This document shows, piece by piece, positions 2,431 to 45,700 of a stretch of DNA of 53,565 nucleotides (its first letter is position 1; every line of letters begins with the position of its first letter). Location: positions 1-53,565 of IMG/VR virus record IMGVR_UViG_3300027728_001630; one strand, written 5' to 3'. The notes below the pieces were generated by a model that had not been told where the DNA came from, did not search any database, and was given only the letters and a program-made list of their open reading frames with translations. This DNA is from a virus. Taxonomy: Duplodnaviria; Caudoviricetes. The translations under genes were made by a program, and so were the position numbers.

Positions 2431-2465
2431 TTCACTGCCGCTTCGGATGGTTCGCGTCTATGATC

Positions 2466-2560
2466 TTATTATAGCATATTTTTGGCCGACGAAAATAGGA
2501 AATAGATGTAATAATTATCACTTTAACGTGATTTGATGTCGGTTTTTGGCCGACATATCT
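2466..2560. promoter_or_regulatory. AT-rich divergent promoter/operator region
   Basis: Minus-strand extended -10 TGcTATAAT near 2467-2476; TTTTTGGCCGAC occurs twice (2479, 2543); inverted repeat ATGTCGG-N7-CCGACAT at 2536-2556. Confidence 0.55.
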
Positions 2561-2561
2561 A

Positions 2562-2771
2562 GTGATCATGACAGATGTTCCAGTCAAACGAGGACGTGGC
2601 CGACCCCGCACAGACGAGGCTGCGGCGCTCGTCCGCGTCAACGTCCGTCTTCCCGTCGCAGTGGAAGCAGCTATTAGGCGGGTTACCGCCGCGCGCAAAG
2701 ACGGCGGCGATATGGCCGACACCCATCGCGCGCTGCTTGTCGATGCCCTTGAGCGCATGGGTGAACTATGA
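2562..2771 (+). CDS. ribbon-helix-helix (Arc/CopG-like) DNA-binding protein with AT-hook-like motif
   Basis: KRGRGRPR followed by VRVNVRLP beta-ribbon and two helices; ATGA overlap with next gene. Confidence 0.65.
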   Translation: MIMTDVPVKRGRGRPRTDEAAALVRVNVRLPVAVEAAIRRVTAARKDGGDMADTHRALLVDALERMGEL

Positions 2772-3259
2772 AAACAAACGCCCACCTCTACGTGATGAAA
2801 TCGCCTAACGGCACGATAAAACTGGGTCATTCGAAGCAGCCGAATGTTAGGCGTCGCCAGATAGAGTTGCAGTTGAATACGACGTTGAAGGTCATTCATG
2901 TGACCGAGATCATCCTCAATGCCGAGCGGGTTGAGCGGCTGGCCCACCGGCTTCTGGCTGTCGCAAAGAAGCGCGTCGGCGAGCAAGGTGAATGGTTCTC
3001 GGCCTCGGTGGACGAAGCGATCGCGTCGATTGAGCAGGCAATTAGAATTGCTAACGGTGAGTTAGACGAGCCCGTTTGGCCGAAGCGCTTCACTGATCGT
3101 CCGACGCCGGGCAGCAATACATTCTCTATGCGTCTCGACCCCGATCTTAAGCAGCGCCTCCAAGCGCTCGCCGACGCTGATCGGCGGAGCCTTACGAACT
3201 ATATTGAGCTGGTTCTTGAGCGGCATGTTCGAGACTGGGTGCGACACCCTGCCACATAG
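2768..3259 (+). CDS. GIY-YIG (T5orf172-like) domain protein fused to C-terminal RHH domain
   Basis: HLYVM...IKLGHS..P..R...E..AH..L......GEWF; C-terminal FSMRLDPDLKQRLQALADADRRSLTNYIELVL. Confidence 0.75.
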   Translation: MKTNAHLYVMKSPNGTIKLGHSKQPNVRRRQIELQLNTTLKVIHVTEIILNAERVERLAHRLLAVAKKRVGEQGEWFSASVDEAIASIEQAIRIANGELDEPVWPKRFTDRPTPGSNTFSMRLDPDLKQRLQALADADRRSLTNYIELVLERHVRDWVRHPAT

Positions 3260-3297
3260 CAAAGCGTAGTTACTTGCGAAAAATGCAAGAAAACCGC

Positions 3298-3326
3298 TTG
3301 CGCAAATTCCACGGCGCGGGTATAGA
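3298..3326 (+). promoter_or_regulatory. sigma70-like promoter
   Basis: TTGCGC-N17-TATAGA. Confidence 0.5.
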
Positions 3327-3347
3327 AATCAGTATAGTCAGCAACTG

Positions 3348-3386
3348 CGCCCGGCACCCACCAAGGATGTCCGGGCGTTTTGCTTT
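3348..3386 (+). terminator. terminator-like hairpin just downstream of the promoter
   Basis: CGCCCGG/CCGGGCG stem followed by TTTTGCTTT. Confidence 0.5.
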
Positions 3387-3389
3387 CTG

Positions 3390-3835
3390 GTCAATCTGCC
3401 AACACCCACACAGCGCGGCACCTCACGCACCCGATGCACTCACGTGCCCCGGCGCTGTACCGGCGTGTGACGATGGACCGGTTCCGACTATCCGAAATCT
3501 CACCCCCCCTTAGTGCTGCGTTCCCCCTCAAGAGTAGACAGCAAGGGAGAGATCAGATGCGCAAGTTGATTCGGGCTGACGCGAATGTAGGCCGGTGCAT
3601 CGTGCTGCACGTCACCCAGCCCGGAGAGCCTAGTACATCCTGACGCGGACCAGTGCTGAGAACGCGGCGGGCTGGTGCGTAGACGATCCCGGCCCGCCGT
3701 CCCCTACTCTCGAATTCCAAGTTACCCGGCGGGAGATATCTCGATCGGGGGTCGGCCAGCGGCATTTCAATCAGGTGGCAGCAGACCCCTCTGTGCCTTT
3801 TTGATGCCGCTGGCCACACTTCATCAGCTTGCGAT
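3390..3835 (+). ncRNA. candidate structured leader RNA
   Basis: No convincing ORF; helices 3432-3439/3595-3602, 3664-3675/3689-3700, perfect 12-bp 3754-3765/3804-3815. Confidence 0.4.
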
Positions 3836-24750: not shown

Positions 24751-27700
24751 ATGACGTCAACGACCGACAGCATGGACGAAATGCCCCCGTCGTTCCGCGA
24801 TGCGGAGCCTGCTGCCGATCAAGGACAATTCTCGACGCCGTCAGTGGTCTCGACGACGGGCGACGACGGCACGCCGCCGTCGCTTGCTGGTGCTGCACCC
24901 GGTCCAAGCGGAGCAAGCGCACCGAATTTCTTTTCCCCGACGGTCGAGTCCGCCGCACCGAATTTCTTTTCCCCGACGTTCGAGTCCGCAAAGGCGGACG
25001 GGTCGCTGGACGACGTCATCTACTCCAAGCTGATCCAGGCCGATACGGACCGGGTTACCAAAGGCGAGCGCCTAATTGACGGGCTGTTTGGTTACTTTGG
25101 TGTTGCCGACCCCAGTCGGCAGGCTGAGATCATCGCAGGCAAGGAGGCCGAGCTAAAGGCGATGTCCACTATGGACATGCTAGGTCTCATCCCAAGTCCA
25201 GCGCGCTTGCTGTACGGCATCGCCACGTCCGGCAGCACCAAGCCGATCCCGGAAGCCCTGGCCGAGGTGCTCGCTAGCCAGATGGGCGGGACGCTGGCGG
25301 CCTCCCGCAAGAAAACGTCCGACATCATCACGGCGGCGCGGAAGAACCCCGAGCGTGGCATCACAGACGACACGGTCTTCGGTGTTGCCCGTGCGGCGGC
25401 CGATGCCGGCATCCAGTCCGTTGTCGACATTCCCGTGTCGGTCGTCGAGGGCATTGGCATCGGTGCGTCGGTTGCTGGCTGGTCATTCGGCGCTGCCGAC
25501 CGGGTTGAAGACAATTCGGTCCAGGCCGTCGCCCGATGGGCGCGCGCTCAGGCCAAGGCGGCATTCCCCGGCGATCCGCTTCGCCAGGAAGACTTTGCCG
25601 TCATGCTGGCGCAAGGCGTCGGCTCCACGGCCGGGTTCTATGGTGTCCACGCCGGCGCTATGGCAGCCGGACTGAAGACACTGCCGGCGATGCTGGTAAC
25701 GGGCACGATCGGCGGCTTGGCAACGTCACCGCAGACCTACAACGATGCACTGAAGTCGCGCAAAGAGGGGCGCGAGGTGTCGGAACTGGCTCTTGCCTTA
25801 GCCTACGGAGGTGGCCTTGCTCTCGGCGGGGCCGAGGCATTGCCGATAGCGTTCAACATTCCACTCCCTGCTGTTGCCAAAAGCCGGGTGATGGCCTTGC
25901 TCCAAACCGTCGGCCGTGAAGCGGCCGAGGAAGGCGCGCAAGAGTTGGTCCAGTCTGTCGGGCAGGACCTGCTGGCCTATTATCTTCACGACCCAACGCG
26001 GCGCGTCGGCGACGATGCAAGCATGAGCATGCTGGTCGGCGCCCTATCGGGCGGCGGCATCAAGGCGGCAACCTTTGCATCAAAGGCAGCGCGCGACCGC
26101 GCCGTTGAGGAAGCCCGTCAGGCTGGCGGTATGCCACCGGTTGCCACCCAAGCCACACCCCAGGCATCACCCAAGACGCCGGGCAAGGGTGTCATCGACC
26201 TTGAAGCCTTAGGCAATGGCTTCCCCGCACCTCAAACGCCAGCCCCGGCGGCCAGCACGCTCGCCCCCGAAGACCGACTCCAGTTCTCAGACATTCGAGA
26301 CAGCCTGCCGAAGAACGAGCGCGGCGACGGTGACACGGCCTACCTCTACCAACTGACGGAACACCTGACCGGCAAGCGGTACTGGAACACGCTCGACGAC
26401 GCGGAGCGCGAGATTGTGTTTGGCGCATTGCGCCAGCCGGACTTTGGCCGGTCGCTTTTGGCGGTCGATCCCGCTCAGGTCCAGGCCGCAGCAGCCGGTG
26501 CCGTTCCAACCGCCACGAGCGCGGCAACGTCGCAGTCCGCACCGCCCGGCCGTGCCGCATCGCCCGCGCAGACCCCAGCAGCACCGGCCGCCGCAGGCCG
26601 CTCCCCGGCTACCGCGCCAGCGCAAGACCTGTTGCCAGCAGGCAAGGTCCCAGACGCGGCGATGGTCAAGCAAGTTCAGCGGGAAACCGCAGAGGCCGAT
26701 GAAGTCGCTGTTCTCGAGCGTGCGCGCGAAACGTCTGTCCCGCCGCCGCCCGGCGAAGACGGCCAGGTCTACACGCTCGGTTCATCGCAGGAATTCGACC
26801 GGGCGCTGAACGCCGCCAACCGCGAGCTCGCAACCGCTCAAGCAGCGCTTGAGGTTGCCGAAGCCAACATGAACGCGGCCAAACCCGCAAAGAAACGATC
26901 GGCTGGAAACGCGTTCGTTGCGGCCCGAACCGCAGTCGAAGATATAGAGCTTGAAATCGATGGGCTGACCAAGGGCCGCGAGCAAGCAGCCGCTGCCGAG
27001 GCAGCACAGGGCGATATGTTCGACCCTGCAGTTCAGGCTGCGCAAGCGCTCTATGACGCCAAGCGTCCTGCAGCGGATTGGTCGGTCGAGGCGATCGTTG
27101 CCGGCGCTGCAACCGGCCTTGTCCGGATCGATCCCGAGGGTGTGCCGCGGCGCGCGGCTGAGCCCGAAGGGCCAGAATTCGACCCTGTTGCAGCCGAGTT
27201 GGATGATGCTCGCCGCAAGATGAACCAGATCGCACGGGCAGCCGGTGGCAAATTGCGGCCGGCGCGGTTCGGCGAGATGCACGCCGACGGCGATCCGGTT
27301 GCTATTCGCATGCTGGTCGAGGGATTGCGCGCCATGCCCGAGGCTGCACTTACCGAACGGTTCGGCGACGTCGCCCGCCTTACGCGCGCGCGAAACCATG
27401 AAGTGAAGGTCGCCCGGGTTGCTCAAGGACTGATGGCAGCCGAGCTTGCCGCGCAAGACGAGGACTACAAGCTGTCGAGCCAGGCTCGAGACCTGATCGA
27501 GCAGACGGTCGAGGATGCGTTCAAGGCGGTTCCGGTCGAAGAGACGGTCGAGAAGGTGGCAGTCGACACGGGCATTGCGGCTGTGATCGACGAAGTCGAG
27601 AAGGTCACAAAGCACATTGACCCGGTCGATGTGGCCAGGACCGTCGGCGGTATGAAGGTTATCGTCAACTCCCTCAATCTGGACGACCTGCGAGCCCAGT

Positions 27701-30700
27701 ACGACGCAGAGGATGCGGAGAAGGCCCGAAGCCTCCCCGAGGCTGGGACACTGTCGGGCGAGGAAGTCGACAGCATTGTCGATACGTGGACCTACGTTCA
27801 AGAAATGCGCAAGGTTCCAAAACCGCAGAGGCTCAACTCATTCCTGCGCGATCTTGGTGGAATTGTTGACGAAGGTGGCGAGATTAGCGCCATTCTAGGA
27901 AAAAAGCGCAACTCAGGCGGTCTGATCAATGGTAGTGGTATTCCTCTTGATGAAGCGGCTCGCCGCGCATGGGATGCTGGTTTTATCACAACCGCACAGC
28001 GTCCGGGAATCGCGACGTTCCTTGATGTCTTGCGCGACGATTTGAACGACAGCCCTGTCGTCAGGCTGAGCGACATCTCGATCTTTGACGATATTGAAGT
28101 TGCCGTAGAAATGGGCAACGAACTGGCGGAGCTAGGGGTATATGATGCCAAAACCGAAAGCGAAGTCCGCGCGCGTCTCGCCAGCCCCCGAGCCCCTGTC
28201 GCTGCGAGCGAAAGCCGAAGTGGGGCGGTCGGTGGTGCGCAAGGTTCTGGCGAAGCGCTCGGGAACCTCGCCGAAACCTTCGCGGACGCCGCAAAAGTAG
28301 CCAGCCCCGCAACGCTAGTCGTCGAGGCACTATCCCAGCAGATCCCGGTCGAGAGTGTAACGTCGTCGCCCGGTATCACTACGATCGTGATGGGTTTCGA
28401 TCGGCTCAATGATAAGACCGGTGTTCGAGCACCAGACAAGACGGCAGATGAGATCGTATCGGAGGTGCAGCCAGCCACGGCGACAGCGCCAACCTCCAAC
28501 GCCGTCGTCACGCCTGCCGATGGCTGGCGGGACAATCTGGTCAAGACCAGAGCCTACGTGAAAGACCTCGGAATACCTTGGAGCGAAGCCCAGAAGGTAT
28601 GGGGCGACCAACAGGCGCTGTTCGACCTAATCGACCGCACGGCAAATCAGGGCACGTGGAAGGAGCAGTTCCGCGACGCAAACGCCATCATGAAACTCGA
28701 CGATGCAGGCGACGTGATCGGCTCGGTCATGTTCGACGGCAAGTCGTGGGCCGCTCTCGATGCCGAAGGCGGTGTCATTGGTAGGGCGTCAAGCCCAGCC
28801 GGAGCGAAGATACTGGTGAACCTTGCGGCATCGCCAGCGGCTGCCAGCGGCACAGGTCTTAAGCCTGGAACGCCTGAGTTCGACCAAGCCGCTCAGGCGG
28901 CTCGATCCGTTATGGATAGTGCCTCAGTCACGCCAGAAGCCGAGCGCGGCTTCAATCTCGCCATGCAGGCGGCCCGCGCGTTCGCGCTCCGCAACGGTAA
29001 GAAGACCGGCAACGAATACGGTGTGATGGGGTTCCCGAACGGAAAGACCAAAGCCAACAGCGTACCGGCTTCGGCGCGCAAGGCGAGCCAACTGCGGGTG
29101 GACGAAATCACCGCGCCCGAGATGTACCTCGGCGCGCCGAATTCGGTCGACTTCCACCACAACCACCCTGGATCGACATCGTTCAGCCGGGCAGACTACA
29201 CGCACGCAGCCCCGCGCCAGGCGCTCCGCCGCACATGGGTTCACGGCCACAACGGCTCCGAGTATTGGGCAGAGTTCGTTGTCCGAGATCCTGTTATCCT
29301 CGGCCAAGCCTGGGATATTGCCAACGAGGCGACCAAGGGCGCGCTCGGCAGCGACATCGACCTGCCTAAGTTCCGCACGCATCTTGTTGCGCAGATGATG
29401 CGCGAAGGTGGCGTAATCCGGTATGATGCCGTTGCGGGCTTCGAGTATGCGGCGGCAGTCCGCACCGAACAGCGCCTACGCCAAGCCATGGGCGACACAT
29501 GGACTGAAACCGTGGCTGCGATCGCAGCCCTCAAGGAGACCGCCGATGGCGTACTGGATCGACCCGCCCGACCCTCTGGACCCGTTGGAGATGTGGCAGG
29601 GACACCTGGAAGACCTGCTGACGATCCAGGACCCGGACCCGGACGTGCAACAAGCGATCCTCGAAGCGCAGAACCAGATCGCCGAGAAGTCGGGGCAATC
29701 CCAAGCAACGACATCACCGTTGCCAGGACCGACGAGTCCCTCGTCGACGGCCTCATTGCCACTTACGACAAGCCCGTCAGCGATGCCGCCCGAGCCCATG
29801 CCGTCGCCCTTGAACGAGTTGGAACCGACACCAAGTTATTCCACGACCTGAAGGCCAAGATCGGCAAGCTGGTCAAGGCCGACATTGATGCGGTATCGTG
29901 GCTCTACGGCAAGGCCGCGCCGAAGCGCACCAAGGCTCTGCAACTCGACACGATCGAAGCGGAGTTCCAGAAGCGGATCGGCACCGAGGCAGATGCGGCC
30001 ACACTGTCTGGCAACCGTGCGATCGTAACCAGGGACACCGAGGCCAATGCAACTGACCGACGCCGAGCAGAGAGAGATCGACGGGTACGCGCGAGCGAGA
30101 CGCCGGTTCTTGATGGAATCATCCCCCGAGACCTTCAAGGCGATGGAGAAGGCCAAGACGCTGGAGGGTCATCTCGAGGAGACGGCGATCGAGGCGAAGG
30201 AGATGTTCGACCTGACGCACGCTCGGCTGAAAGCGGAAGCGATGAAGGAACAGGAGTTCCAGGCGAGAGTGGAGCTTCTGCAGCAGGCTCCGATCGTGGC
30301 AAGCGAGATCGTGATGAGCGAAGTGATACTGGTGCTGCCATCCTCGCAGCCAAGCGCCAAGCCGATAAAGAGCGAAAAGACCGTCGACGCGAAAACTACC
30401 GGATCACCGAAAACGACCCCATCGGCGAAGGCGGTCCCAAAGAAAAAGTCCGCGCCAACATCGCCGCCATCAGGCTCGTAAAAGAGCTTGCCGAGTCCCC
30501 TGACCGTAAGCCGACGCTGGCCGAAAAGGGCGTGCTGGTCCGCTACGTCGGCTGGGGTGCATTCGCTCAGGACGTGTTCGCCACTCACAAATCAGAGTGG
30601 GCCAAGGAACGCCAGGAACTGATCGACCTCATGACGGCGGAGGAATACGCCAGCGCCAGTGCGTCGACGCTGAATGCCCACTACACATCGCGGAGCGTCA

Positions 30701-33700
30701 TCGATGCGATGTGGGCCGCCGTCGAGCATCTCGGCTTTACCGGTGGCAGGGCGCTGGAGCCATCGTCTGGCGTCGGCCATTTCATCGGCCTGACACCGTC
30801 CAACCTTGCCAAACAGATCGACTGGACCGCCGTCGAACTCGACACGATCACCGGCAAGATCGCGAAGTACCTCTACGAGGGGTCGGACGTTCGCATCTCA
30901 GGGTTCGAGAAAACCAACCTGCCGCCGAATTTCTTCGACCTTGCGATCTCGAACGTCCCGTTCGGCAACTTCACGCTGACCGATCGCAAGTATTCCAAGC
31001 TGCTGATCCACGACTACTTCTTCGCCAAGGGACTCGACCTTGTTCGACCGGGCGGCATCGTCGGGTTCATCACGTCGGCTGGCACGATGGACAAGCCGAG
31101 CACGACGGCCCGTCGTCTGATCGCAAGCAAAGCAGACCTTGTCGGCGCCATCCGACTGCCAGGCGGCCGCACGGGTGCGTTCGCTGGCAATGCCGGCACC
31201 GAAGTAACGACCGACATCATTTTCCTGCGCAAGCGCCTGGAAGGCCAGGAGCAGTCGCCGGAGACCAGGGAGTTCCTGGATAGCGTCACGGTCGAGACGC
31301 CCGACGGGCCGACCAAGATCAACGCCTACTTCGCCAAGCGCCCGGAGATGATGCTAGGCGAGATGCGCCTGACGGGCTCAATGTACCGCGACAAGAGTCC
31401 GGTTCTGGTCGGCTCGACCGACAACATCAAGCAGCGCATTATCGACGCCGCACAGAAAATGCCAGCGAACGTGTTCGTCGAGCGCGGCACCGAGACGGTC
31501 GACATTGGCGACACCAAGGAACTGTCCGATGCAGCGGTCAAGGAAGGCGCGTTCTTCCTCAAGGGCGGCAAGCTGTTCCAGAACGTGCTCGGCCAAGCTG
31601 TTGCGCAGAATGCAACAGGTGCGAAGCTCAAGCGCGCCCGCATGCTTCTCGACATGCGCGACATCGTCAACGACATCATGGCGATCCAGTCGGGCCGGGG
31701 CAAAGGCAAGGCCGAATCCCTGCCGGCGCTGCGCAAGAAATTGAACACGGCCTATGATGCTTTCGTGAAGGCGTTCGGGCCGATCAATAAGAAAACGATC
31801 TCGATCCAGAAGCGCAAGATCAAAGGCGAAGAGCGCGAGATCACGATCGTCAAGTTCCCGAACCTTGCCGATTTCCGCGACGATCCGGACAGCTACAAGG
31901 TCTCGGCGATCGAGAACTATGACGCTGAAAATGACACGGCCACTAAGGCCGCCATCTTCAGCGCCGACATACTGCAGCAATACGTCCGCCCCGACATCAC
32001 CGGGCCCGACGACGCGCTCGCTGTTTCTCTGAACGAGACCGGCAAGGTCGATATCAAGCGCATCGCTGAGATGATGCAGACGTCTGAGGATGAGGCAGCC
32101 GCCAACCTCGGCGAGCGCGTGTTCCTCAATCCCGACGGCGAGAAGCACGAGATCAGCGCGGTCTATCTGTCGGGCGACGTCGTCGGCAAGCTTGAGCAAG
32201 CGACGGCAGCGGCCGAGATCAACCCGGCGTTCCGGCGCAACGTCACGGCACTTGAAGCGGTGCAGCCGACAAAGCTGTCGCGTGTCGACATCCGAACGAC
32301 GTTCGGCGCCCCCTGGATACCAGCCGAAGTGCTGAACGCCTACATCGCGAACGTGCTCAACATCCGCGGCGAAGTGAGGTTTGAGCCGATCACGTCGAGT
32401 TGGATCTGGACGTCCGCCAACGTTTACACGACGCCGTCCGGCCAAGCCGCGTGGGGCACCACAAGGGCCGAAGCGGACGATATCGTCATTGCGGCGCTGA
32501 ACAGCAAGAAAATCACGGTCTACGACAAGGATGAGAAGGGCAACCCGGTTGCTAACCGGACCGCCACCGAAGATGTTGCGGCCAAGGTCCGAGCTGTTTC
32601 CGAGGCATTCACAGGCGACCCAACACTCGGCATGCCCGGCTGGGTCTGGGAAGACGAAGCCCGCGCGCAGATGCTTGAGGACTTATACAACGATAAGTTC
32701 AACCGGCTCGTCACCACGGTCTTTGACGGGTCGCACTTGACGCTGCCAGGATTGGCAACGTCGATCGCACTGCCGAATGGCCAGACAGTGCCGTTCTCAC
32801 TGCGGAAGCACCAGAAAGACGTGATCTGGCGGGCGATCCTGACCGGAAACGTCCTGATGGATCACGCCGTTGGCGCGGGCAAAACCTATGCCATGATCGC
32901 GGCCGGCATGGAGATGAAGCGGCTCGGACTGATCCGCAGGCCTATGTATACCGTGCCGAACCATATGCTTGAGCAGTTCTCGCGCGAGTTCCTCCAGGCC
33001 TACCCCAACGCCAAGATTCTCGTCGCCGAGAAGAAGTATATGGAGGCGAAGAACCGCAAGGCCTTTGCGGCTCGGATTGCTGCCGACAATTGGGACGCGA
33101 TCATCATAACGCACTCAGCCTTCGGCAAACTGCCGATGTCGCCAGAAGCCTATAAGGAGTTCCTGGAGGAACAGAAGGCAGAAATCGTCGAGGCTTGGTT
33201 GACTGCCAAGGGGGAGGCTGAGGATAACGGCAAGCCGTCGCGCGACCCAACCGTCAAGCAGATTGAGCGCAAGAAAAAGGCGATCAAAGCCAAACTCGAT
33301 AAGCTGATGGCGACGGACAAAAAGGATGCCGGCGTCGAGTTTGAAGAGCTGGGTGTCGACTTCCTGATCGTGGACGAGGCCCACTGCTTCCCGAGTGAAA
33401 CGCTGGTCGACACCGACCGGGGCCAAGTCTCTATTGGAGAGATCGTCGAAAACAAACTGCCAGTGCGCGTTCGGAGCGTTGATCACGCTACTGGCGAGAC
33501 TGTTTGGAGGCCTGTCACACAGTTCTGGAAGTACCAGAAACAACAGAAGAAACTTGTTGTAATTCACACGTCGTCAGGGCAAAAGGTTACGTGCACAACG
33601 AACCACCACGTTTTTGTTGACGGACGGGGCTATGTCGAGGCCAAGACTATCGTTGCCGGGGATGCCGTGCGCATCTTGCGGAGTGGCGTTTCGTCCCGCG

Positions 33701-36700
33701 GACTCATGGGCGGCCAAGACCGCGAAGTATTGCAGCACCGCGTGCAAAGCCATGGGTATGCGGAAGCCGCGACCCGACAGAACTTGTCAGATGTGCGGTT
33801 TGACGTTCGCTCAGGAACAGGCAACTTCGCGGACCGTGCAGAAGTTCTGCAGCATAGGGTGTTACCACTCGCACCAAGAGATCAGCGCAGCGCCGATAGT
33901 GTTAGCCTGCGAGACGTGCAGTCGGGAATTCACGCCGGTCGCGCGAGGGCAAGGTGGTCGCGCTCAGAGATTTTGCTCGAAGCCGTGCAAGGGTCTCGCG
34001 CACCGCAAGCCAGTGGCGAAGACGTGCGAGGTTTGTTCCAAGCCGTTCATCTTCCGCAGCAGCGGATCGACCAACAACGCGAAGAGACGGTTCTGCTCAG
34101 GCTCCTGTTCGGCCCGATGGCGGATGGCACAGCCGGGTCGGACCGAGTTGTCGGCGGCTCCAATGCACGCCGCCATGAAGCAGAAATGGAAGACGGACAA
34201 GGAATTCGTACAGCGCGTATCGCAAGCATCATCGGATCGAATGAGGCTGCGGAATCCAATGCGATGCGAAGCCACTCGGTCCCGGATGGCGAAGTCGCTT
34301 TCTGGTCGGACGTTTCTGGCTCGGGGTGGCAACGGACAGACGACCAAGCCACAGATTATGTTGGCCGAGGCGTTGGGCGCGGCACCGATAGAGTTTGCGA
34401 TTTCAACCAAGCCGGTGCGTGGGCAGTTCCCATCGCTCCCGAGCAACTACAAGGTCGACGTGGCCTTGCCGAGCATCCGGCTGGCTATCGAAGTGGACGG
34501 GCTCTCTCATCGCACGAGGAAGTGGAAGTTCCTGGATCGACGGAAAACCGAGATACTGAATGCTCTCGGGTGGTCCGTGTTGAGGTTCTCGAACCAGGAA
34601 GTGCTGACGAACCTGCAAGCTGTTGTCGACCAGATCAATTCGTTTACGACATCGGCGTCGAGGGAGAGCACAACTACTTCGCCGACGGCGTCCTAGTCCA
34701 CAACAGCTATAAAAATCTTGACTACCAGTCGCGTCACTCAAATATCAAAGGAATCGGCGTTAAGGGGTCCGAGCGCGCGACCGACCTTTTCATGAAGATC
34801 CGCCACATCGAGAAGACCAAGCCGGGCCGCTCGACAATCTTTGCCACCGGCACACCCATGTCGCGGTCGATGGCCGAAGTCTACACGATGCAGCGGTATC
34901 TGCAGAGCGCGACGCTGCGCGAGTACGGCATCGAAAAATTCGACACCTGGGCCGCCACGTTCGGCATGGCCGTCACCAAGACAGAGCAGGGCGTAAGCCT
35001 GAAATTGAAGGACGTCACGTCGTTCTCGAAGTTCATCAACGTGCCGGAACTCAGCGCGCTCTACTCGCGCGTGACCAGCAGCGTGACCGCGAACGATCTC
35101 AATCTGGCTCGGCCAGAGCTCAAGGGCGGCCAGCCGCAGGTTGTCCTCGCCGAAATGGATACCGCGCAAAGCCAAGCCACAGACGAACTCATTGCAAAGA
35201 TGGAGGCGCTCAAAGGTCCGGCAGAGAAGGGCGAAGACAACCATCTGTCGCTCTTCACCAAGATGCTGCAGGTCGCGACCGACATCCGTCTCTACGATCC
35301 GAGCGCCGAGTTCAACCCTAACGGCAAGATCGCCAAGGTCGTCGACAACGTCTTCAAGATCTATAGCGAGGGCAAGGCGCCAGCGCTCGGCCAGTTGATC
35401 TTCTCCGACATGGGGCCGCCGAGTTCGCGAAGCAAAGCCGCACCGGCAAAGAAGCCGCGCGACGCTGGCGACGAAAGCGCGATCGACAAGATCCGCGACA
35501 GTCTCATGGTCGATTCCGATGACGATGCCGATGGCGATCCAGACGCCGAAGGCAACGCCGAGATCGAGTCGATGCTTGAAGGCAAGTTCAACCTCTACCA
35601 GGACATCAAGGATCGTCTGGTTGCACGAGGTGTCCCGGCGAAAGAAATCGCCTTCATCCACGACGCCAAGAACGACCAGCAAAAGGCTGAGATGTTCAAG
35701 GCCATGCGGGCTGGCAAGATCCGCATCCTGCTCGGCTCGACAGCCAAGATGGGCGTTGGCACCAACGTCCAGCGACTTCTGACCGCGTTGCACCACATAG
35801 ACGCGCCGTGGAACCCGGCCGACGACGAACAGCGCAACGGTCGTATCCTGCGCCAGGGCAACGAGAACAAGGAAATCTCGATATTCCGCTACGTCACGGA
35901 GGGCTCAGCCGACGCTTACCGGTGGCAGATCCTCGCACGTAAGGCAGAGTTCATCGCGCAGTTCCGAGCCGGCGCGCGCGGATTGCGGGACGCCGAAGAC
36001 ATCGACAGCCCGATCCCGGAAGCCTCTACGCTCAAGGCGCTCGCGACTGGCGATACGCGGATTGTGGAGTTTGCAGAGCTCACCCGCGAATTGCGGGTGA
36101 TGGAAGCCGCCAAGCGCGGCCACGAGCGGACCTACATTTCTGCGGCTCTCTTGCTGGCCGAAACGAGGGCCGAACTCGCTTATCGCGAGAAAGCGCTTGC
36201 CCGGTACGTCCAGGATGCTCCGCTGGTCACCGACCTACGCGGCGATGCGTTCAAGGTCCGGCTCGACACGGGCACTCTCAATGGCGAAGTCACCGAACGC
36301 AAAGCGGCCGGCGAGGCTATCCGTAGCCAAATCCTGGCGGAAATGAAAAACCACAGGGGCCGTGACGCGAACGAAATCGAACTCGGCGCCATGAGCGGCT
36401 TCAAGATGGTCGCCAGCGCTCGCAAGTCGGACAACGGCATTGTCGTCCGGTTCTCTCTGGAAGGGGCGGCAAGCTACCAGCCGGCCGACGGCAACAAGGT
36501 GATCACGGGCGAATCCGATGCCGTCGGCATCGTGAGGCAGTTCGAGAACATCCTGATCGGCATCCCAGGCGTTCGCAAGAACACCGAGAACTTCATTGCA
36601 CGACAGACGGCGGAGCTTCCTCGTCTTGAGAAGCAGTCCGTGGCGACGCCGTTCCCGCGCGCCCTTCAGTTCGCCACGATGAAGGCACGCTACGAGGAAC

Positions 36701-39700
36701 TCGAGGCCGCCCTAAAGCCCAAGCCGCCAGAGGCACCACGTCCGTCTGCTGTATCTGCCATTACGGCTGATGACGATGACGGGTCGATGGCGTCGTTCGT
36801 TGGCGCGACGGATCGCGGCGATGACGTGTTCGCCCGCGCGAGGGCCATGGAAGAGGCCGGGAAGGACCGCTACGCGATCTGGGCCGACACCATGGCGTTC
36901 CGTGGCGCCGACGGCCAATGGCTCCGTGAAGTCGACGACAGCCAGCAACGTGCAGATGCGGCTCCGTCTAAGGGTATTCTGGGGCTTCTGCAGTCTGCCA
37001 TCAATATGGTGGCTGGCACCGGCAGAAACGAGCCAGCGGCCAACCTGGGCGGCGCGGATGGCGTTGGCGGCATTGCCGACGAAGCATCCGACGATCCAGA
37101 GATGCGCGACACCTCGCCAGTCTTCGGCGACGTGCTCGCCCGGCTGACCGAGAAGCGCTTGCGGATGTCCGTCGAAGAGCGCCGCGCGCGGCCGCCGTGG
37201 GAGGACTACGACGTTCCCGAAGCCGACCAAGTCGTGGTCGACGCCACGGAGCGAGCGCAATTCTCTGCGGCAAGCATTCTATTCGAGACCGAAGGGTTCC
37301 AGCGGGTCAGCCCATTGAAGCCCGGCACGGCGCTTGATCCGATCGCGACCGACAAGCCCGGTCCGCTGCTGCGGGAGTTGCAGCAATTCGGGTTCGCCGA
37401 AGTGCAGATGGCGAAATCTGACAGCGCCCGCCGCGCCGCCGCCGACGCCATCAAGGCGCTGCGGCTGATTTCAGAAGTGACAGGGCTTGCCCCGGCGTCT
37501 CTCGGCCGGTCGGCGCCGACCGTCCTAGTGTTTGATACGGCTGCAGACGCCAACGCATCATTCACTTCCGGCCGGCTGTTCGGCATGCAAGTTGCCCCGT
37601 TTGAGATGACAGTTGACGACGGAGTTGGCGGTCGGGCGGTGGTCCATGAGTTCGGGCACATGGTCGACTCGCTCGCGAGTGGCACGCCACAGCGGGAGAT
37701 GACCAGCCGGGCACCCAACTGGCGCAGCCGCGTCAACCTGCTTGCGTCCTACGGCTTGCCGATGCTGGCGACCGGCGGCGTGCCGATCCCTGGCGCCCAT
37801 CTTGCGCTGAAGGCGCTGGATCGCACCGCGTTCAACGGCACCTTGCTTGCTGATCGCGTCCGCACATCCACACCATGGATGTCACCCGGTGTCCGTGCCG
37901 GCTTCGAGAGAGTGCTTGCCGTCCTGGCCGATGGACAGGGGGTGGCGACAGGTGTGCCGGAGGCTGTCACCCGGTGGCGCGAGTCCTATGCCGCTTACAA
38001 GTCGGCGCTTCAGGAGCAGGCTTACGAAACCTCGAGCGCAGAAACGATCATTGAAGATGCCGTCGCGGCCGGCGATCTGTTGCGTGCGCTGGATAACGAC
38101 GTCGAAACGCTCCGTTTTGCTGCGCTCGACGGCGACACGACCACGATCCAGGCCAACAGCCAACGGCTTCAGGATCAATTGCAGGCGGTAGGTGACCGGC
38201 TTGAAGCGGTTACGGCCTCGACGGACGCCGCTCGAGACCTGCTGGTTGAAACCAGCGCGCTGATGACGGTTCTCGAGAAGTCGACGGCAGGCGAAGCGGG
38301 TTCACCCCCGATCGTCGGGACCTACCTTTCCCGTCCCGAGGAACTCTTTGCGCGAGCGTTTGAACATTACGTGGCGCAAAAGGCCATAGAGCGTGGCTAT
38401 CCAAAGGATCAGATAGACGAGATATTCGCCGGTCATGACATTGGTCCTTTTGCGACGCCGGGAACCGACGCTTCAAGGGAGATAATTGGGGGCTTCGAGC
38501 AGATCTTCAAGGCGGTCGTCACCGACGGGCGTGGTCACCTGTACTTTACCGAGCCGCCGGCCGCCGCCGCTGGGCCTGACGCTCAGATGGCAGAGCTACG
38601 CCGCACACTGAAAAGGGAACTGAGAAATGTCCAAGGCCGAGCCAATGGCGCTGCTGTCGGGGTTGATCGCCAGAGCGGAGAAGTTGCCGAAGGGGCGGTC
38701 GGACCGGAAGGCGCTGTTGAGGGACGCGCAGAAGGCGCTCGAGATCGCGCTGTCACCGCCATCGTCAGCGACAAGCAACTTGCCGATGCCTTCCTCTCGG
38801 CCGAACTCAGGCCGGACGCCGTCAAGGTTCGCGCCGTCCAGCAAGGGTTCACGACCCGGGCAACCGGCGACGTCAGCAGCCTCGAAGCCTTCCCCAGCGA
38901 CGGCACCTTCGGACTCCATGCCGCCCTCGCTCCGCCAGCCCCCCGTCAAAGCATAGGCGAGCGGATGCTGGCCTGGGCCGGCCTTGCCCCGGCAAAGGTC
39001 GAGTCCGAGCCCGCACTGCGCATTCGGCAGATGCGGTCGATCCGTATGCCAGACATTGTCGACTGGCACGATCCTGCCGCGTGGGCGACTGCCATGGCGA
39101 CCGGCGTCTACGACGGTCCAGAGCTACTGACGCGGTTCGTCACCGAGTGGCAGGCAGTAAATCAGCCGGTAATGCCACGAGACGTGACAGACCACCGGTT
39201 CTCGATGGCTATGGCCGACGAACTCTCGCGCCTGGGCTACGAGGCTGTCGTCTACCGCGGCGCCGATCGGGCCGAGCGGGTCATGGTGTGGGAGCCGGAG
39301 CGCATTCGATCGGCCGACGATGCGTTCCACCCGGACGCGGTGGGTGAGATCGGGCTCAATGCGTCCGAGCCGTTCGTCGAGCAGGATCTGCGCGATCGGC
39401 TGAACCGGATGCTTCGCGAAGAGGGGATGTCCGAAGAGGAAACGACGACGTTCGACGATGACGGCAGCATGGCGTCGCTCGTGCCGCGCCGGACGAACGC
39501 CGACGGCTACGTTCTGATGCTGCCATACGAGGCAGAGTGGGGCGACAACCGGTTCAATCCGGACGATGCGGCTCGAGCCAAGGCTCGAATGCGCGAGGTG
39601 CTTGATCTCGACCCGGCCACCGCGTCGTGGGACGATCTCGTGTCTGGCTGGCGCGATGCCAACCAGATCATCGCAAACATGATGTATTTCGCGCCGGATA

Positions 39701-42700
39701 ATACGGTCGACACGATCCGGGAACGTGCTGCGACAGTCTCGCCATCGGCCAATATCCCCTATAGCCTTTTGTCTAACTATGCCTACCTAAAACGCCTTGA
39801 AGAACGCCGTAGCATGGCCGAATGGCAAGAAGCGTACGATCGCAACGTATTCTTCAGCGACACCCCACACGCCGAGTGGCAGGACTACATCACGCTGGGC
39901 CGTGCGATAGCCAACAAGTGGATGTCGGTCGGCAACAGGCCACGCCTGAGCGACCTCGTCTTGATGGGCGATGGGCTTGAGCCGAAGGCGCCGAAGAAGC
40001 GCAAGCGCGGCGCGCGCCCGGGCGAAGTCGGCGAGACCATGAAGTCCGGCTTCTACTGGCAGTCGGGCCGCCTGTTGAAAGAAATCCCCGACCCGATCTT
40101 TGAAATGGGCTGGATTGCCGTCAACAACTGGATGCGCCAAGCGGGTGTCTCCGTTGCAGAGACGACGTTCCTTGAGTTTCCCATGGTCGACACGCCGACC
40201 ACACGCGACGAGGTTGCCCGTCTGATCGCAAAGGGCATCTTTGACTTTAAGGTGCGGGTCAACCGGTGGAATCCGGAGCGACCGCGCACGGGTCGTGGGC
40301 ACGAGGACGGCTACGATTACGGCGGCACACGTGCGGCTGACGGGCCGCGCATTCCGGGCCGCGGCATCTATCTCGAAGACCGATTGCTGTTCCCGAAGCG
40401 GTTGCGCGGCGGCGCCGAGTTCTTCTTGGGCCAGTTCGACAGCTACCACTGGAACGAGGAAGGCACTTGGTCATCGCTCCGAGGATCGATCCGCGAAGTT
40501 CCTGGCTTCGGGCAGATGCTCGTGGACGAGAAAAGCCAGACCTTCTTTGAGCAAAGCGCCGCCGCCGAATTCAGCCCTGACCGTGCAAGTAAGTTCACGC
40601 CCGAAACGCCGATCGACGAAACCTACGTGCGCGTCATGGCGCGGCAGATCCTGCTGCGCGCGGTAAAGGAAAACGTCGACAGCATAGGCATCTCTACGAT
40701 CGAAACGACGGCGCGCATCCAGGCCAACGCCAGCGCATTGTTCTTCTACGGGCAGATCGTGCCGAGCTTGCAGAAAGAACTGCGCCGGATCTCTGGTGAT
40801 GGGTCGCTGACGCTACAGCAGATCGAATTGCCGAAGGCCATGGGTGCTCCAAAGCGCGAGAAGCCCTACACGGTCTGGGCGGTTCGTATCCCCGACAACG
40901 TCCGCCGCCAGATCAAGGCGAACGGCCTGCCAATGATGAATCTGGCGCCAACCCCGGCCGGCAATCAAAGGCTGACCGCACAAGCGCAGGCCAAATACCC
41001 AGCGATCGCGGCCGATCTTGAGCAGCGCTTGCGGCGGATGCTTCCCGCCGACGTTGCAGTCGAGTTCGCGCATCGCCTATTTGATAAGCGCGGTCGCGAG
41101 CGGTATGGCCAGTTCCGCCCTGACATCAAGCTGATCGAGGTCGCGCTATCTCGCGGTGCCGACCAAGCCATGATGTCGGGCGCGCACGAGGTGGTTCACG
41201 CCCTTCGTGAGGCTGACGCATTCACCGATGCCGAGTGGGCGTTGCTCGTCGAGCGGGCCCGCAAGGTTGGTGTCGAAACGGCCATGGACCGTGACGGCGT
41301 CACCGAAGCCTACCGTGATATGTTCAAGGCGCGCGCCCGCAAGATGGGCCTTGCCAAGCCAGATGCGGATGCCTTTGTCCAGCGAATGATGGACGAAGAG
41401 CTTGTTGCGCGGCTCGCCGAGCAATACTTCGGGCCGCAGAAGGCTCGCTTCGGCGCGACGATCGATGCGCTGCTGCAGCGGATCGGAGACATCCTCGACG
41501 CTATCGCAGCGGCATTCAACGGCCAAGGCTTCATGTCGGCGGATGCCGTATTCCGGCGGATGGAGCGCGGAGCGCTGGCGAAGCGTGTTCAGCCGACACG
41601 GCCGGGCCCGGCACGCTCGACGCTCAAGACGACCAATGCGGACGACGTGCGCGCTGTCAGCGATCTATGGAGCCAAGCGGCACTGGCTGATGGCGACAAC
41701 CTTTCCAGCATGGAGAAGGCCGAAAACATCGTCGAGGTGCAGGCGTTCCTGCGGTCGTTCAAGCCCGTGCGCCGACCGATCACGGCCAAGCTTGATGTTG
41801 TCGCCGCGAGCGGCGGATCGAACGTCACCTACTTTGTCGTGCCCAAGGGTCGAGACGCATACGACCGGGGTGGTTCCCGGCAAAGCGTTGCTGAGTTCAT
41901 CGTGAAGCCGGCCCGTCGCAAGGCGGTGCGTGGCGTCGAGGTCACGAATGCCAGCGTCACGGCCGACTATCAGCGTCAAGGCATCGCCACCGCCGTCTAC
42001 GACATGATCGCCGAGGATATGGCCTCCGTCGGCGGGCTGTCCCCTACCACGAGCGACAGTCTTGAGCCGGGCGGCAGGGCGTTCTGGTCTGCTCGCGATC
42101 CGAACCTTGAGCTCGACAGCGACGAAGACCGCCGGTTTGCGGCCATGATGTTCGACGCCATGCGTGGCGAGACATCGGCATCGCTCACGGCCCGTCCGAT
42201 CGTGATGTCGCAGAGCGTGGCCGAGGCTGCCGTCGATCTAGGTGCCGGTCGCCGCGTTGCATCCGACCCGCAGCAGATCAATCGTGTTCTGCGTCTTGCC
42301 GCGACGGAAATGAAGGTGGTGCCGGACAACGTCCAGATCGGGGCCGTCCAGCTTCTGACGCCGGTATTCTCGGACGGCAAATTCACCGGTCTGGTCGACG
42401 TGCGCGTCGCCGGGCCCGGCGGCAGATCAGCCGGGACGTTCCGTATTGCTTGGAACGTCATCAGAAATTCCAGCGCTGTCTACCACCGGCAGAGCCGGAC
42501 GATCCTGTTCAACACGATCCCGGGCGTGGTTGAGAACCAAGCTAAGGCCGTCCCCGGTGAGGTTTGGCATGAGTCCGTCCACAGCTTGTGGGACACCGCT
42601 ATTGTCGGCGAGGTCCGCGATCGGTTGCTTGGGCATGCGAAGCTCCTGAAGGTTTTGGACATCGATATCAGCACGTATTCGCAGGCGAAGGGTAGCACAA

Positions 42701-45700
42701 AGCGGCATGCGGCGGGTTCCGTCCTCGAAGCCTACGACGCGCACTATGCGGGCTTGTCGGACAAGGCCGACCGGATAGACCAGGAATATGTGGCGTTCAT
42801 GATGGAGCTCTACAAGGTCGGGTTCTTCACCCGCGCCGAGCTTGAGCCAGTCATTGATCTGGTCGACGCGTTTGAGCAAGGGCTTCTAACGGCACAAGGC
42901 GAGGCGGTGGAGCGCGACCAAGTCATGGCCGCGATCGTCGACGCTGACACCGGCCGTTCCATGCGCCGTGATCTGGATGCGCTCGGGTATTATTCTGGTG
43001 CGCTTGAAGCAGCCAAGGGCCTAAAGCAAGCCAAGGGCACGCCAGAGCAAATGCTGGCCCAGCTTAAAGCAGGCGGTGCCAAACAAAACGAGATTGAGGC
43101 GACAAACCTTGCGCAATTCCTCGACGGCAAGAAGTCCGTCACCCGTGACGAGATCGTCAATCACCTGACTCAGAATAGGGTCGGGGTGAAGGAGGTTGTT
43201 AACAAGCGCGGAGAAACGCCGTCCGGTGCCCGTGGCTTTCGCGACGATACCGGAAACACATTCGACAAGGATCAAACCGGCTTCACGCTGTTTCCATTGA
43301 CCGAGAAGGTCAAGGCGTCGGTGCGTGACGATGGCCTGCCCATGTTCGCGCTCGCGGGCAATGGCGACCAGAACGCCGAACAGCCCGACATGACGCCGAC
43401 AACCCGTCCATTCGCAATGGAAGGATACGAGGGCAGCGTCACCACGACACCCAAGCAGGACGGGCTTCGCACGCGCGTCTACACCGTGTCGACTGATGGT
43501 CAGATGCAGGCACGCATCGCGCTATCCGAGCGCGAGCCGAACCTGTGGGAGATCATCGGCGTTCGTCTCGACAAGGCCCAGCACGGCAAGGGGCTCGCTC
43601 TGCGGGCTATCGAAGCCATTGAGCGCGACGCCGGCGCGCAGGTGTCGGCTGACGGTATCATCACGCCAGAGACATACCAGCAGATCGCGGCTGTGGCGCC
43701 GGATTCGGTGCGGTTCCATGTCCGGACCGGTGCCGCGTTCGACGGTCTCTACATGCCCCATCGTGCAATCGAGATGATGCGAAATGCGGCGGCAGATGCT
43801 GCCGTGGCATCACCAACCGATGACGCTGCTCGAGATCGTGAAGCGCTTCGTGGATCGGAAGCCACCGTTCCGGATGACGCCTACCGGGTTGATCGGATCA
43901 TCGCCGGTATGGAACGCCAAGGCCTCGACATGAGTCCAGGAGCTCGCAAGGCGCGGGCCGAAGAGATGGGGTTTGATACTGCTACAACTTGGTATCATGG
44001 TACGGCTGCAAAGTTCGATGCCTTTGACCCTGCTATCGGATCGACGCCCGGCATTTGGATGACCTTAAACAAAAAGGCCGCAAGCGGCTTTGGTGATGTA
44101 GGGTCGTATTTTATCAAGGCCCAAAAGTTTGGCTCTATGCAAGACTTCATGGCTGCGCGCGTGGGAGTTGCCAAGACCGGACTTGAGCCGGGGTCGCGCG
44201 AATTTTCGCAAGCAGTGGTTGACCGGCTTGTCTCCCAAGGTTTTGACGGCATCCGCGATGCGAAGTTTAAAGGCGCTGGCGGGGTTGGCGAAGACGTCGT
44301 TATGATGTTGCGGCCTGAAAACATCCGCTCCGTCAACGCTGACTTCGACCCGAACGAGACCGACAGCGACAACATCCTGGCGGCGCTCGCCCCGATCCAG
44401 CAGCCGCCCGTCCCTCGCCCCCGGCCGCCACAACTCCCACAACTCGGCGACACCACAAAGTCAGACACCCAAGCACCAGAGCAAGGGCTGTCCGACCTGA
44501 TCGCCATGCTCAAGGAAGCCATCGGCATCGAAGAGCGCCGCGGCCGCCTCAACCCAGGCCTCAAGGCCGCCATGGGCCGGCTCGGGGCCAAGCTATACGG
44601 CCAGTTCTCGCGCCGCACCGGTATCGTTCGCACGGCCATACCGAACGACATCCAGACGCTTGCCCATCAAGGCGGTCACGCGCTCGAGACCAACGCCGAA
44701 CTCGCGCCCTACATCGAAGCGTTGAAGCAGGTTCACTTCGCCGAACTTGTCCCGCTCGCAACCCCTGGCAACGATCAACTCTCCGAGGGCTGGGCAGAGT
44801 TCTTCCGGCTCTATGTGATCGACCCGACGACAGCGCGGACCATGGCACCCGGCATCACGCGGGAATTCCGTAACATGCTGGAGAAGAACCGCCCAGAAAT
44901 GCTGACCGCGCTCGATGCCGTGCAGGTCGGATACGCTGCGCTCCAGGCGGCGTCACCCGCTGGCGTGGTCAAATCTCGCGTGCAATCGACCGTTCGCCCG
45001 ACGACCAAGATCGGCAAGGCGGCGGAAGAGATCAGAGAAAAGGGCTTCCGGGGTGCAACCAGCGACTGGCTGTACCAGGCGACGACCGGGCTGCTCGACG
45101 ATAAAAACCCGCTCAAGGTGGCGGTTAAGTTCCTCATTGAGGAGGCAACTCGCAACCTCGGCAGCCAGATCAAGGCCGGCGAGCAGGTCGTTATCAAGGC
45201 GCTGAACGACCCCTACAAGCTCGCTCGGATGATGGAGCACGCCCGTGTGCATGCGACCGCGATCCTGCGGCGTGGTGTGGTCGGCAAGGGTCGGACGCTG
45301 CCGAGAGGACCATCCATGCAGGATGTCCTCACCGAAGCTTTCGGCGGCGCGGGCAACGCCCAATGGAACGAGGATATGGCCCAGACGTTCGGGGCGTTCC
45401 TCGTCTCCCGCCGTATGAACGCCGAGTGGGACCGCTTCGACAACGGCTTCTTGGACGCTCCGCCCGACCACCTCATCAGCCGGCAGGCATGGGCAAATGC
45501 GCAGAATGACCTTGAGAAAGCCTACCCGCAGTTCCGCAAGGCGGCGCGGATGCTCGACCAGTTCAATGCCAACCTGCTCGAGCTGAAGTTCCAGAACGGG
45601 TTCCTGACGCAGGACCAATACGACGACTTCCGGTTCCGCGACGGGTACGTGCCGCTGCAGCGCATCATGGATCAAGACGGACCGTCGTCGCTGAACGCCA

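Follow-up and report, generated by a model that had tools for sequence, protein, structure and literature searches.

The virus record IMGVR_UViG_3300027728_001630, analyzed as a whole (53,565 bases, G+C 61.7%; hereafter the window), encodes a JAB/MPN-like domain in the middle of one open reading frame (ORF) of 7867 amino acids, and directly behind that domain carries a small acidic gene nested in the +1 frame. The small gene belongs to a family whose members also occur as separate genes immediately downstream of the same domain, both in stand-alone versions and at the C-terminus of phage MuF proteins. The domain itself has the fold and the metal-site motif of the JAB/MPN superfamily and represents an undescribed family within it. 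On balance, we consider it somewhat likely that the nested small protein is an inhibitor or immunity partner of the JAB-like domain, and that the two constitute a two-gene mobile cassette which was absorbed by the giant ORF. An earlier note on this DNA had suggested that the logic of effector-immunity pairs operates here within one ORF. The computational checks reported below support this suggestion, with the immunity role itself being our reading of sequence comparisons and predicted structures.

A small gene family linked to the domain

The nested ORF extends from the ATG at 29546 to the stop at 29849-29851 (101 codons). A ribosome-binding site of the form AAGGAG-N7-ATG opening the +1 frame, and an acidic core of about 50 residues encoded behind it, had been noticed earlier, and both are borne out: AAGGAG at 29533-29538 is followed by 7 bases and the start codon, and the 55-residue core has seven aspartates and four glutamates against a single lysine, giving a net charge of -10. 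Over the interval 29546-29707, the G+C content at the first, second and third codon positions is 0.72/0.33/0.83 in the +1 frame and 0.85/0.74/0.34 in the host frame, while from 29708 onward the coding signature of the host frame is restored (0.68/0.43/0.74; 0.66/0.47/0.73 for the whole giant ORF). Because this signature switches over 29546-29707 and reverts from 29708, the part written for the +1 frame comprises about 54 codons, and the rest of the 101-codon ORF is read-on. The tail encoded by 29708-29851 is rich in P, S and T, and is read out of frame from the host domain that follows. Neither the start signal nor the length of the ORF is significant alone: the Shine-Dalgarno-ATG pattern is found twice in the window against 1.27 expected, and, at 2.44 stops per 100 codons, the +1 frame would by calculation stay open over 101 codons with a chance of approximately 0.08. 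However, the switch in G+C signature, the match to a profile made without the window and the conserved place behind the domain elsewhere put the nested ORF far above chance.

Principal features of the giant ORF around the nested gene (positions in the window)
Feature	Position	Strand	Remarks
Giant ORF	24751..48354	+	7867 amino acids; single host frame of the nested gene; 23.6-kb gene
JAB/MPN-like domain	28948..29545	+	Residues 1400-1598 of the giant protein; AlphaFold2 model, structure searches
Conserved Glu, E23 of the domain	29014..29016	+	Invariant in 48 sequences; inside the predicted interface
Metal-site motif HHNHP-x5-S-x2-D (H70, H71, N72, H73, S80, D83)	29155..29196	+	Read from the sequence
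Second His pair, H99-G-H101	29242..29250	+	At least 90% conserved in 48 sequences
Shine-Dalgarno-like AAGGAG	29533..29538	+	7 bases 5' of the nested ATG
Nested-gene core, 54 codons	29546..29707	+	+1 frame; codon-position G+C, hidden Markov model, 24-member alignment, structure model
Tail read on beyond the nested-gene core, 47 codons and stop	29708..29851	+	Usual stop of the family absent; host signature back
Host-frame read-through linker, P/G/R/A/D-rich	29546..29730	+	Host third-position G+C 0.28-0.34

Giant ORFs with the same domain were recovered from four metagenomic loci, of which three are distinct (L001, L002 and L004; L003 is a near-duplicate of L002). Each has, at the place equivalent to that in the window, a +1 ORF of 53-54 codons with its own ATG, a purine-rich run 5' of it and its own stop, and the encoded peptides are homologous to that of the window. 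A further giant ORF with a nested small gene comes from a bacterial genome (L011), so that the nested ORFs of these five loci span 47-54 codons, all with their own start and stop. The drop in G+C at the third codon position (GC3) of the host frame just 3' of the domain recurs in L001, L002 and L004. When the two frames are compared over the bases common to these sequences, the mean BLOSUM62 pair score is 82 for the nested frame and 39 for the host frame (10 pairs), and the host-frame pattern V-x-D-R, conserved among the giants, is a shadow of the nested M-Y-x-I-D. All giant-ORF relatives for which DNA was at hand have a +1 ORF matching in size and place; it is significant in L001, L002, L004, L011, L022 and L042, and weak or recognizable only visually in L038/L039 and L043. 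Across the relatives the small ORF stops after 47-60 codons.

A hidden Markov model (HMM) was built from six small ORFs, with the window left out, and searched among 3058 six-frame ORFs. It retrieved the window ORF with E = 3.1e-14, the next match in the window having E = 2.2. Significant matches were obtained in three of seven new genome loci, namely L017 (three copies, at about 1e-17 to 1e-19), L015 (E = 1.3e-10) and L014 (E = 3.5e-9), and L016 gave a marginal one (E = 1.6e-3). In L014 and L015 the small gene follows stand-alone JAB proteins of 214 and 202 amino acids, respectively. The MuF-JAB genes of two Kaistia genomes (L005 and L006, the latter a prophage locus in Kaistia soli DSM 19436) encode 634 or 539 amino acids, and each overlaps at its end, in an ATGA, the start of a member of the small-gene family (57 or 55 codons). 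The free-standing two-gene versions for which the earlier note had proposed a search are represented by these loci as well as by many viral contigs.

A scan of viral contigs with a wider domain alignment (A1) yielded 26 loci with the domain; the same scan with the single window sequence, or with an alignment of the giant relatives only, gave no confirmed locus. The small gene lies directly 3' of the domain in 19 of the 26 (HMM E <= 5.4e-7). Some of these loci are redundant (L026, L027 and L028 are the same, as are L038 and L039; L044 and L045 share a peptide), and the peptide of L036 is identical to that of L006, which had been included in the HMM. In all eight carriers that were tested, a Phage_Mu_F domain is present N-terminal to the JAB-like domain, and in the MuF carriers the small gene is separate, with its start -37 to +4 bases from the stop of the carrier. 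In the giant-ORF carriers among the viral loci (L022, L042 and, weakly, L038/L039) it is nested in the +1 frame. Retention of the downstream ORF by homologues of the domain, on which the earlier note had made its proposal depend, is accordingly seen in most viral loci, in about half of the new genome loci if the marginal one is counted, and in the giant relatives. Sequence comparison establishes the linkage of gene and domain across three architectures: stand-alone, MuF C-terminus and giant ORF. Like the cognate gene of a toxin cassette, the small gene stands immediately downstream (19 of 26 viral loci; L005, L006, L014, L015 and L017), and the relatives have a variable domain placed C-terminally on a delivery module; in the window the domain is internal. 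A sample of genomes at the order level contained the small gene in 3 of 301, a figure that describes the sample and is no proof of absence.

The 24-member alignment of the small family is characterized by an N-terminal Phi-I-D-P-P-x-P-F motif followed by E-E-W-x-x-F-L, and 22 of the 24 members carry a net negative charge. The structure model (predicted local distance difference test score, pLDDT, 84.5) places helices at residues 14-25 and 32-54, so that the small protein is predicted to consist of an extended N-terminal segment with the I-D-P-P-x-P-F motif and a helical hairpin. It has no significant match in Pfam, PHROGs or NCBIfam and no usable one in the ESM Atlas, and a word-based search for longer proteins containing the nested peptide found only the 101-residue ORF of the window itself. 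With its own start signal, conserved borders, a +1 coding signature and homologues that are independent genes, the nested ORF has the properties of a functional nested gene.

The JAB/MPN-like domain and the predicted complex

The host frame 5' of the nested gene reads D-F-H-H-N-H-P-G-S-T-S-F-S-R-A-D-Y, with the H-H-N-H at 29155-29166, the serine at 29185-29187 and the aspartate at 29194-29196; together with the glutamate beginning at 29014, the JAB-like metal motif that had been recognized earlier is exactly in place. In an alignment of 48 relatives E23, H71, H73 and D83 are invariant, and H70, N72, P74, S80, H99, H101 and G103 are conserved in at least 90%. The family hence displays the Glu...His-x-His...Ser-x-x-Asp constellation of the JAMM proteins, with a spacing of 6 residues between His and Ser, and additionally keeps an H-G-H-(N/D)-G motif. 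The canonical His-to-Ser spacing in JAB/MPN proteins is 7.

An AlphaFold2 model of the domain (pLDDT 89.7) was compared with 48,161 chains in a wide VIA-align search. Ranks 1-16 and 18-20 were JAB/MPN entries or JAMM homologues, apart from an untitled structural-genomics protein at rank 6, and rank 17 was the Jab1/MPN region of Prp8; over ranks 1-20 the Z-scores lay between 5.1 and 7.4, with root mean square deviations of 2.9-4.7 over 88-122 residues. The matches include PfJAMM1 (Z = 7.4), Rpn11 (7.1), a bacterial Ubl-deubiquitinase (8tyy; 7.0), Cap3 (5.9) and RadC (5.1), and the best, weak Foldseek matches (E >= 0.035) were BubCD, AMSH/Sst2, Rpn11 and CSN5. The structural ranks and the invariant E, HxH and D, taken together, make the assignment of the modeled domain to the JAB/MPN (deaminase-like) fold sound. 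In sequence searches, Pfam gave no match at E <= 10 on 28660-29559, the curated JAB, Prok-JAB and RadC models being among those not matched, and nothing significant was found in PHROGs or NCBIfam; the RadC model scored on L015 only, under its cut-off (E = 0.059). Sequence profiles of the Protein Data Bank (PDB), searched with the two chains, gave best E-values of 2.9 and 0.016, both to unrelated proteins, and the ESM Atlas returned for the domain only unnamed clusters, with MuF2, Prok-JAB and RadC as distant leads that all fall below 0.9. As the domain has the JAB/MPN fold and matches no curated sequence model, it constitutes an undescribed family of this superfamily.

An exhaustive profile-free search with residues 1304-1770 of the giant protein detected 64 proteins at E <= 1e-3. 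Eight of these are giants of 5093-6641 amino acids, and the remainder are mostly 200-950 amino acids long with the domain at the C-terminus. Among the relatives that were scanned, P0016, P0017 and P0020 are MuF proteins with Phage_Mu_F N-terminal to the domain. P0017, which ends in the JAB-like domain, itself bears an intein, and in P0061 the domain is found at the end of a portal protein (Phage_portal_3). The domain was present in 8 of 401 genomes sampled within the class and in one of 401 sampled across the phylum (the centre genome only); these counts characterize samples and do not prove absence.

A complex of the two proteins, the structure prediction of which had been named as a check on the original idea, was predicted with the domain alignment and the small-protein alignment supplied as custom, unpaired inputs. 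Three runs scored 0.63, 0.83 and 0.75 (median 0.75) and the controls 0.00, 0.33 and 0.00, with a contact agreement between runs of at least 93% and a partner pLDDT of at least 81. Of 80 solved complexes 58 attained the mark, as did 2 of 110 mismatched pairs, a calibration that holds only roughly when custom alignments are used, and the verdict of the procedure is that the result supports binding and does not show it. The PDB contains no sequence relative of either chain. In the model the controls were passed and residues 1-12 of the small protein, within which its invariant Asp and prolines fall, are laid on E23, H71, H73 and S80-D83, i.e. on the catalytic site. The small protein is thereby predicted to bind the domain at its active site through its conserved N-terminus.

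Inhibitor, other partner or relic

The above observations lead to the following picture. The JAB/MPN-like domain and the small acidic protein would travel jointly as a two-gene cassette, the simple forms of which would be a stand-alone domain of about 200 amino acids, or MuF C-terminal cargo, with the small gene translationally coupled behind. In giant polyvalent proteins the upstream stop would have been lost, the long ORF now reading the small gene in a -1-shifted frame and yielding from it a disordered linker rich in P, G, R and A. The small gene would retain its own ribosome-binding site and ATG, and in the relatives its own stop, and would be expressed by internal initiation on the common mRNA. 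Its product might then lay the I-D-P-P-x-P-F motif into the catalytic cleft, and so keep the enzyme silent in the virion-producing cell or the prophage carrier, in the manner of an immunity protein for a polymorphic toxin. The enzyme would act inside the infected cell after ejection; MuF and polyvalent proteins are virion cargo. We infer in this picture that the small protein is expressed, that it inhibits, and that the domain has an activity that is harmful or serves counter-defence. Instead of a toxin, it may be a counter-defence effector.

An intermediate form is seen in L017. There, a 651-amino-acid protein with PBECR3 and JAB-like domains has lost the stop behind the latter, continues across the first small ORF in the other frame and terminates shortly beyond it. 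Downstream, at 2333-3452 of this locus, are two orphan cassettes, each with an intact small ORF; one retains the C-terminal remnant of the JAB domain, the other has no more of the gene than a copied read-through tail, and between them, at 2771-3103, is an Imm33-like gene (PF24719, E = 5e-37). Such an array of orphan toxin ends and immunity genes was found in L017 only, and its spare partner genes beside truncated enzyme ends resemble, by analogy, polymorphic toxin loci.

Several observations weigh against this interpretation. Seven of the 26 viral loci are without a significant small ORF: four have weak matches (E 0.06-0.37) and three no match, one of them at a contig end; in L037 and L043, which gave no HMM match, an ORF of similar size and pattern is present in place by eye. 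Among the new genome loci the HMM found nothing significant in L013 and nothing at all in L018, where the domain is broken, or in L019, a distant relative. The fold scores are middling by the note of the tool itself (Z at most 7.4; best Foldseek E = 0.035). The complex was modeled with custom unpaired alignments, which makes its calibration rough, one control reached 0.33, and a JAB cleft, the normal occupant of which is a ubiquitin tail, may attract any peptide. The JAB-like ORF of L016 (444-1241 of the turned locus; minus strand as fetched) reads H-I-N-R in place of H-H-N-H. Both of its metal-binding histidines are lost, and yet a marginal, overlapping small ORF with V-D-x-P-x-P-F follows; this locus would need no plug of the active site. 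Lastly, internal initiation at 29546 is deduced from the Shine-Dalgarno sequence, the ATG and conservation, and the copy in the window, which has no usual family stop and acquires a 47-residue out-of-frame tail, is possibly decaying.

The alternative that survives best, and that we nevertheless regard as rather unlikely, is that the nested product binds the domain without inhibiting it, serving as a cofactor, specificity subunit, chaperone or packaging adaptor, or as a substrate such as a propeptide from which a variable N-terminal leader is removed ahead of I-D-P-P. The linkage and the predicted binding would suit any obligate partner equally, the residues ahead of the I-D motif number 0 to about 19 and are leader-like, and the marginal small ORF retained by L016 despite the loss of the catalytic histidines is in line with a function other than inhibition; furthermore, MuF proteins are head-assembly and ejection proteins, so that an assembly role is conceivable. 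On the other hand, spare small genes beside domain remnants and an Imm33-like gene, as in L017, are the pattern of immunity genes and not that of a cofactor or substrate, and the predicted contacts sit on the catalytic residues themselves.

It is improbable that the +1 ORF is the relic of a separate gene taken in by the giant ORF, which is no longer translated or needed and whose conservation was inherited or imposed by the linker. The missing stop of the window copy, with its 47 codons of out-of-frame sequence, would be in line with such a relic. However, no fewer than six independent giant ORFs (L001, L002, L004, L011, L022 and L042), with domains that are only 24-46% identical, have preserved the start, the Shine-Dalgarno-like run and the stop, and the nested frame retains a coding G+C signature and has twice the score of the host frame when the two are compared over common bases. 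Nor would an unconstrained linker hold a GC3 of 0.28-0.45 where that of the genome is about 0.73-0.8.

The view that the +1 stretch belongs to the giant protein by way of two frameshifts (programmed, from compensating indels or from assembly errors) would account for the rare codons and low complexity of the host reading of 29546-29707, which looks out of frame, and is nonetheless very improbable and close to refuted: contigs from runs of four studies contain no indel, the +1 ORF of the relatives is bounded by stops, just 5' of the ATG and again some 54 codons on, in a stretch over which the host frame remains open, and the peptide occurs elsewhere as a separate gene. The contigs cover 28900-30500 with 0 differences and 0 gaps, which excludes an assembly frameshift; X1 and X11, possibly a source of the window DNA, cover it whole, X14 covers 28900-30167 and X17 patches only, the latter two not being marked as possible sources. 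A compensating frameshift was also considered as a candidate and rejected: sought in frame in eight giant homologues, the first and second nested peptides gave best BLASTP E-values of 0.5 and 0.096.

The giant ORF, its other nested genes and comparison with known systems

The window is a podovirus-like phage. Its large ORFs match the small and large terminase subunits, a head-tail adaptor or portal-type protein, a tail protein, an internal protein with a lysozyme-like part, tail fibre-like proteins and an endolysin, and the giant ORF is situated between the lysozyme-bearing internal protein and a tail fibre-like protein. Since Pfam finds in it LPD38 (E = 2e-20), ART-PolyVal, LPD1, LPD23, GNAT and ResIII/Helicase_C, the last split by an intein, the giant ORF is one of the large polyvalent proteins as defined in the accessible passages of Iyer et al. 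2017 (PMC5512222), and part of the virion module; it combines many unrelated conflict-type domains and LPD domains with phage structural neighbors. A DNA similarity search with 28660-30060 against phage and plasmid records gave no match. Eighteen studies contribute 22 metagenome runs, of lake water or freshwater, in which the region 28900-30500 is present; 16 of these runs contain half or more of its sampled words, and none of the 22 is recorded as RNA.

Two further ORFs are nested in the +1 frame of the giant gene. The first (30047-30481, plus strand, 144 codons) encodes a TnpV-like protein, whose first approximately 94 residues are recognized by phrog_24764 and by the Pfam model TnpV (PF14198, E = 2.8e-10; 40.6 bits, the cut-off being 27). 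The +1 frame has a codon-position G+C of 0.63/0.35/0.81 across 30047-30330, with a host GC3 of 0.35, and the host frame there reads as an R/D/G/E-rich "linker" just 5' of a methylase-like part. At the equivalent place L011 has a nested +1 ORF (TnpV E = 0.0023; phrog_938 E = 7e-19), and L004 a 100-codon one without a family. The second (33614-34696, plus strand, 360 codons) lies in the middle of an intein (host residues ~2876-3318), and combines Zn-ribbon repeats (zf-FCS, E = 4.7e-7) with a terminal endonuclease part of DUF559/Vsr-like type (PF04480, E = 1.1e-13). Nowhere else does the +1 frame stay open for longer (377 codons), and host GC3 falls here to 0.32-0.52. The intein (~33376-34700, plus strand; Intein_splicing E = 7e-13, Hint E = 4e-7) splits a SNF2/ResIII-type helicase right after D-E-A-H. 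The nested ORF has the look of a homing-endonuclease gene set out of frame inside its intein, whose own reading there would be filler. Low host GC3 was also noted at 27796-28050 (minimum 0.38) and 43741-44100 (minimum 0.40), both on the plus strand, where the host reading is like that of an ordinary protein. Neither segment has a convincing ORF in another frame, the +1 ORF at 43784-43933 being without a family and of unconvincing sequence, and both are possibly recently acquired.

Together, the three nested +1 genes suggest that the "linkers" of the giant protein are overprinted genes. More tentatively, it is possible that the linkers of giant polyvalent proteins in general are small genes read out of frame and still alive in +1 (here the inhibitor, the TnpV-like protein and the homing endonuclease), that these genes are translated within the giant message, that such ORFs grow by loss of stops and by reading on across partner genes located between their parts, and that the JAB domain is an injected isopeptidase directed against ubiquitin-like defences (Bil/Bub, CBASS Cap2), which the nested inhibitor restrains until ejection. 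Gene callers give the giant ORF and overlook its contents; in this case, no fewer than three real protein families are encoded in the +1 frame of a single gene of 23.6 kb. Other giant ORFs could be scanned for hidden genes in a simple way, by looking for a local fall of host GC3 that coincides with a rise in a different frame. If the small protein is indeed an inhibitor, the pair would represent two undescribed linked families, a virion-carried enzyme and its antidote; effector-immunity logic would persist within polyvalent proteins, and stop loss with out-of-frame read-through of small intervening genes would be a concrete route for the assembly of giants. As L006 is a prophage locus in Kaistia soli DSM 19436, the pair is open to study in a cultured strain.

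The adjacency of effectors and immunity genes, and the presence of JAB domains of the RadC clade in polyvalent proteins (PMC5512222, accessible passages), are already known. In the literature as covered by listings, abstract openings and the accessible passages of PMC5512222 and PMC5576092, we did not find a description of the domain family, the small-protein family, their linkage or the nested retention. According to the available text of Jamet et al. 2017 (PMC5576092), MuF toxins are followed by small, presumed immunity genes, a small ORF standing directly after 89.4% of 191 muf toxin genes. The pair described here is like these in that a variable C-terminal enzymatic domain on a MuF head protein is followed at once by a small ORF, all eight tested carriers being MuF proteins with a start/stop-coupled small gene; it differs in that the pair of the window lies in the middle of a 7867-amino-acid ORF, within which the small gene is nested in another frame. 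The word "JAB" is absent from the accessible text of PMC5576092, which does define an uncharacterised proteobacterial extension, "Ct_MAD". This extension might be the JAB-like domain described here.

With the polyvalent proteins, as portrayed in the accessible part of PMC5512222, the giant ORF has in common that it encodes a very large protein, delivered with the virion and composed of many domains, including those of the LPD, ART-PolyVal, methylase/helicase-type and JAB-clade (RadC) kinds. In contrast to those, the domain studied here is not of the Pfam RadC family, the window having no match and L015 one at E = 0.059 only. The accessible text of that paper does not contain "overlapping", "frameshift", "TnpV" or "intein", and its passages on "immunity" do not concern partner genes inside polyvalent ORFs.

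The domain resembles the JAB/MPN isopeptidases, such as Cap3 of CBASS and those of the Bil/Bub systems, in its fold and in the E...HxH...S..D constellation, its structural neighbors including 8tyy, BubCD and Cap3. Unlike them, it belongs to no profile, has the extra H-G-H-(N/D)-G motif and a His-Ser spacing of 6, and no ubiquitin-like partner gene was seen with it. Its partner is modeled as a helical hairpin, of which the N-terminus, rather than a C-terminal tail, is predicted in the cleft.

Nested out-of-frame gene pairs are known from the lambda Rz/Rz1 spanins, the two products of which bind each other, and from comS inside srfA of Bacillus subtilis. What these cases have in common with the present one is a small gene that has its own start and is fully contained, in a different frame, in a larger one. 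In contrast to them, the nested gene of the giant ORF derives from a once separate downstream gene that is still separate in relatives, and the host reading across it is only a linker, the pair itself looking like an enzyme with its inhibitor.

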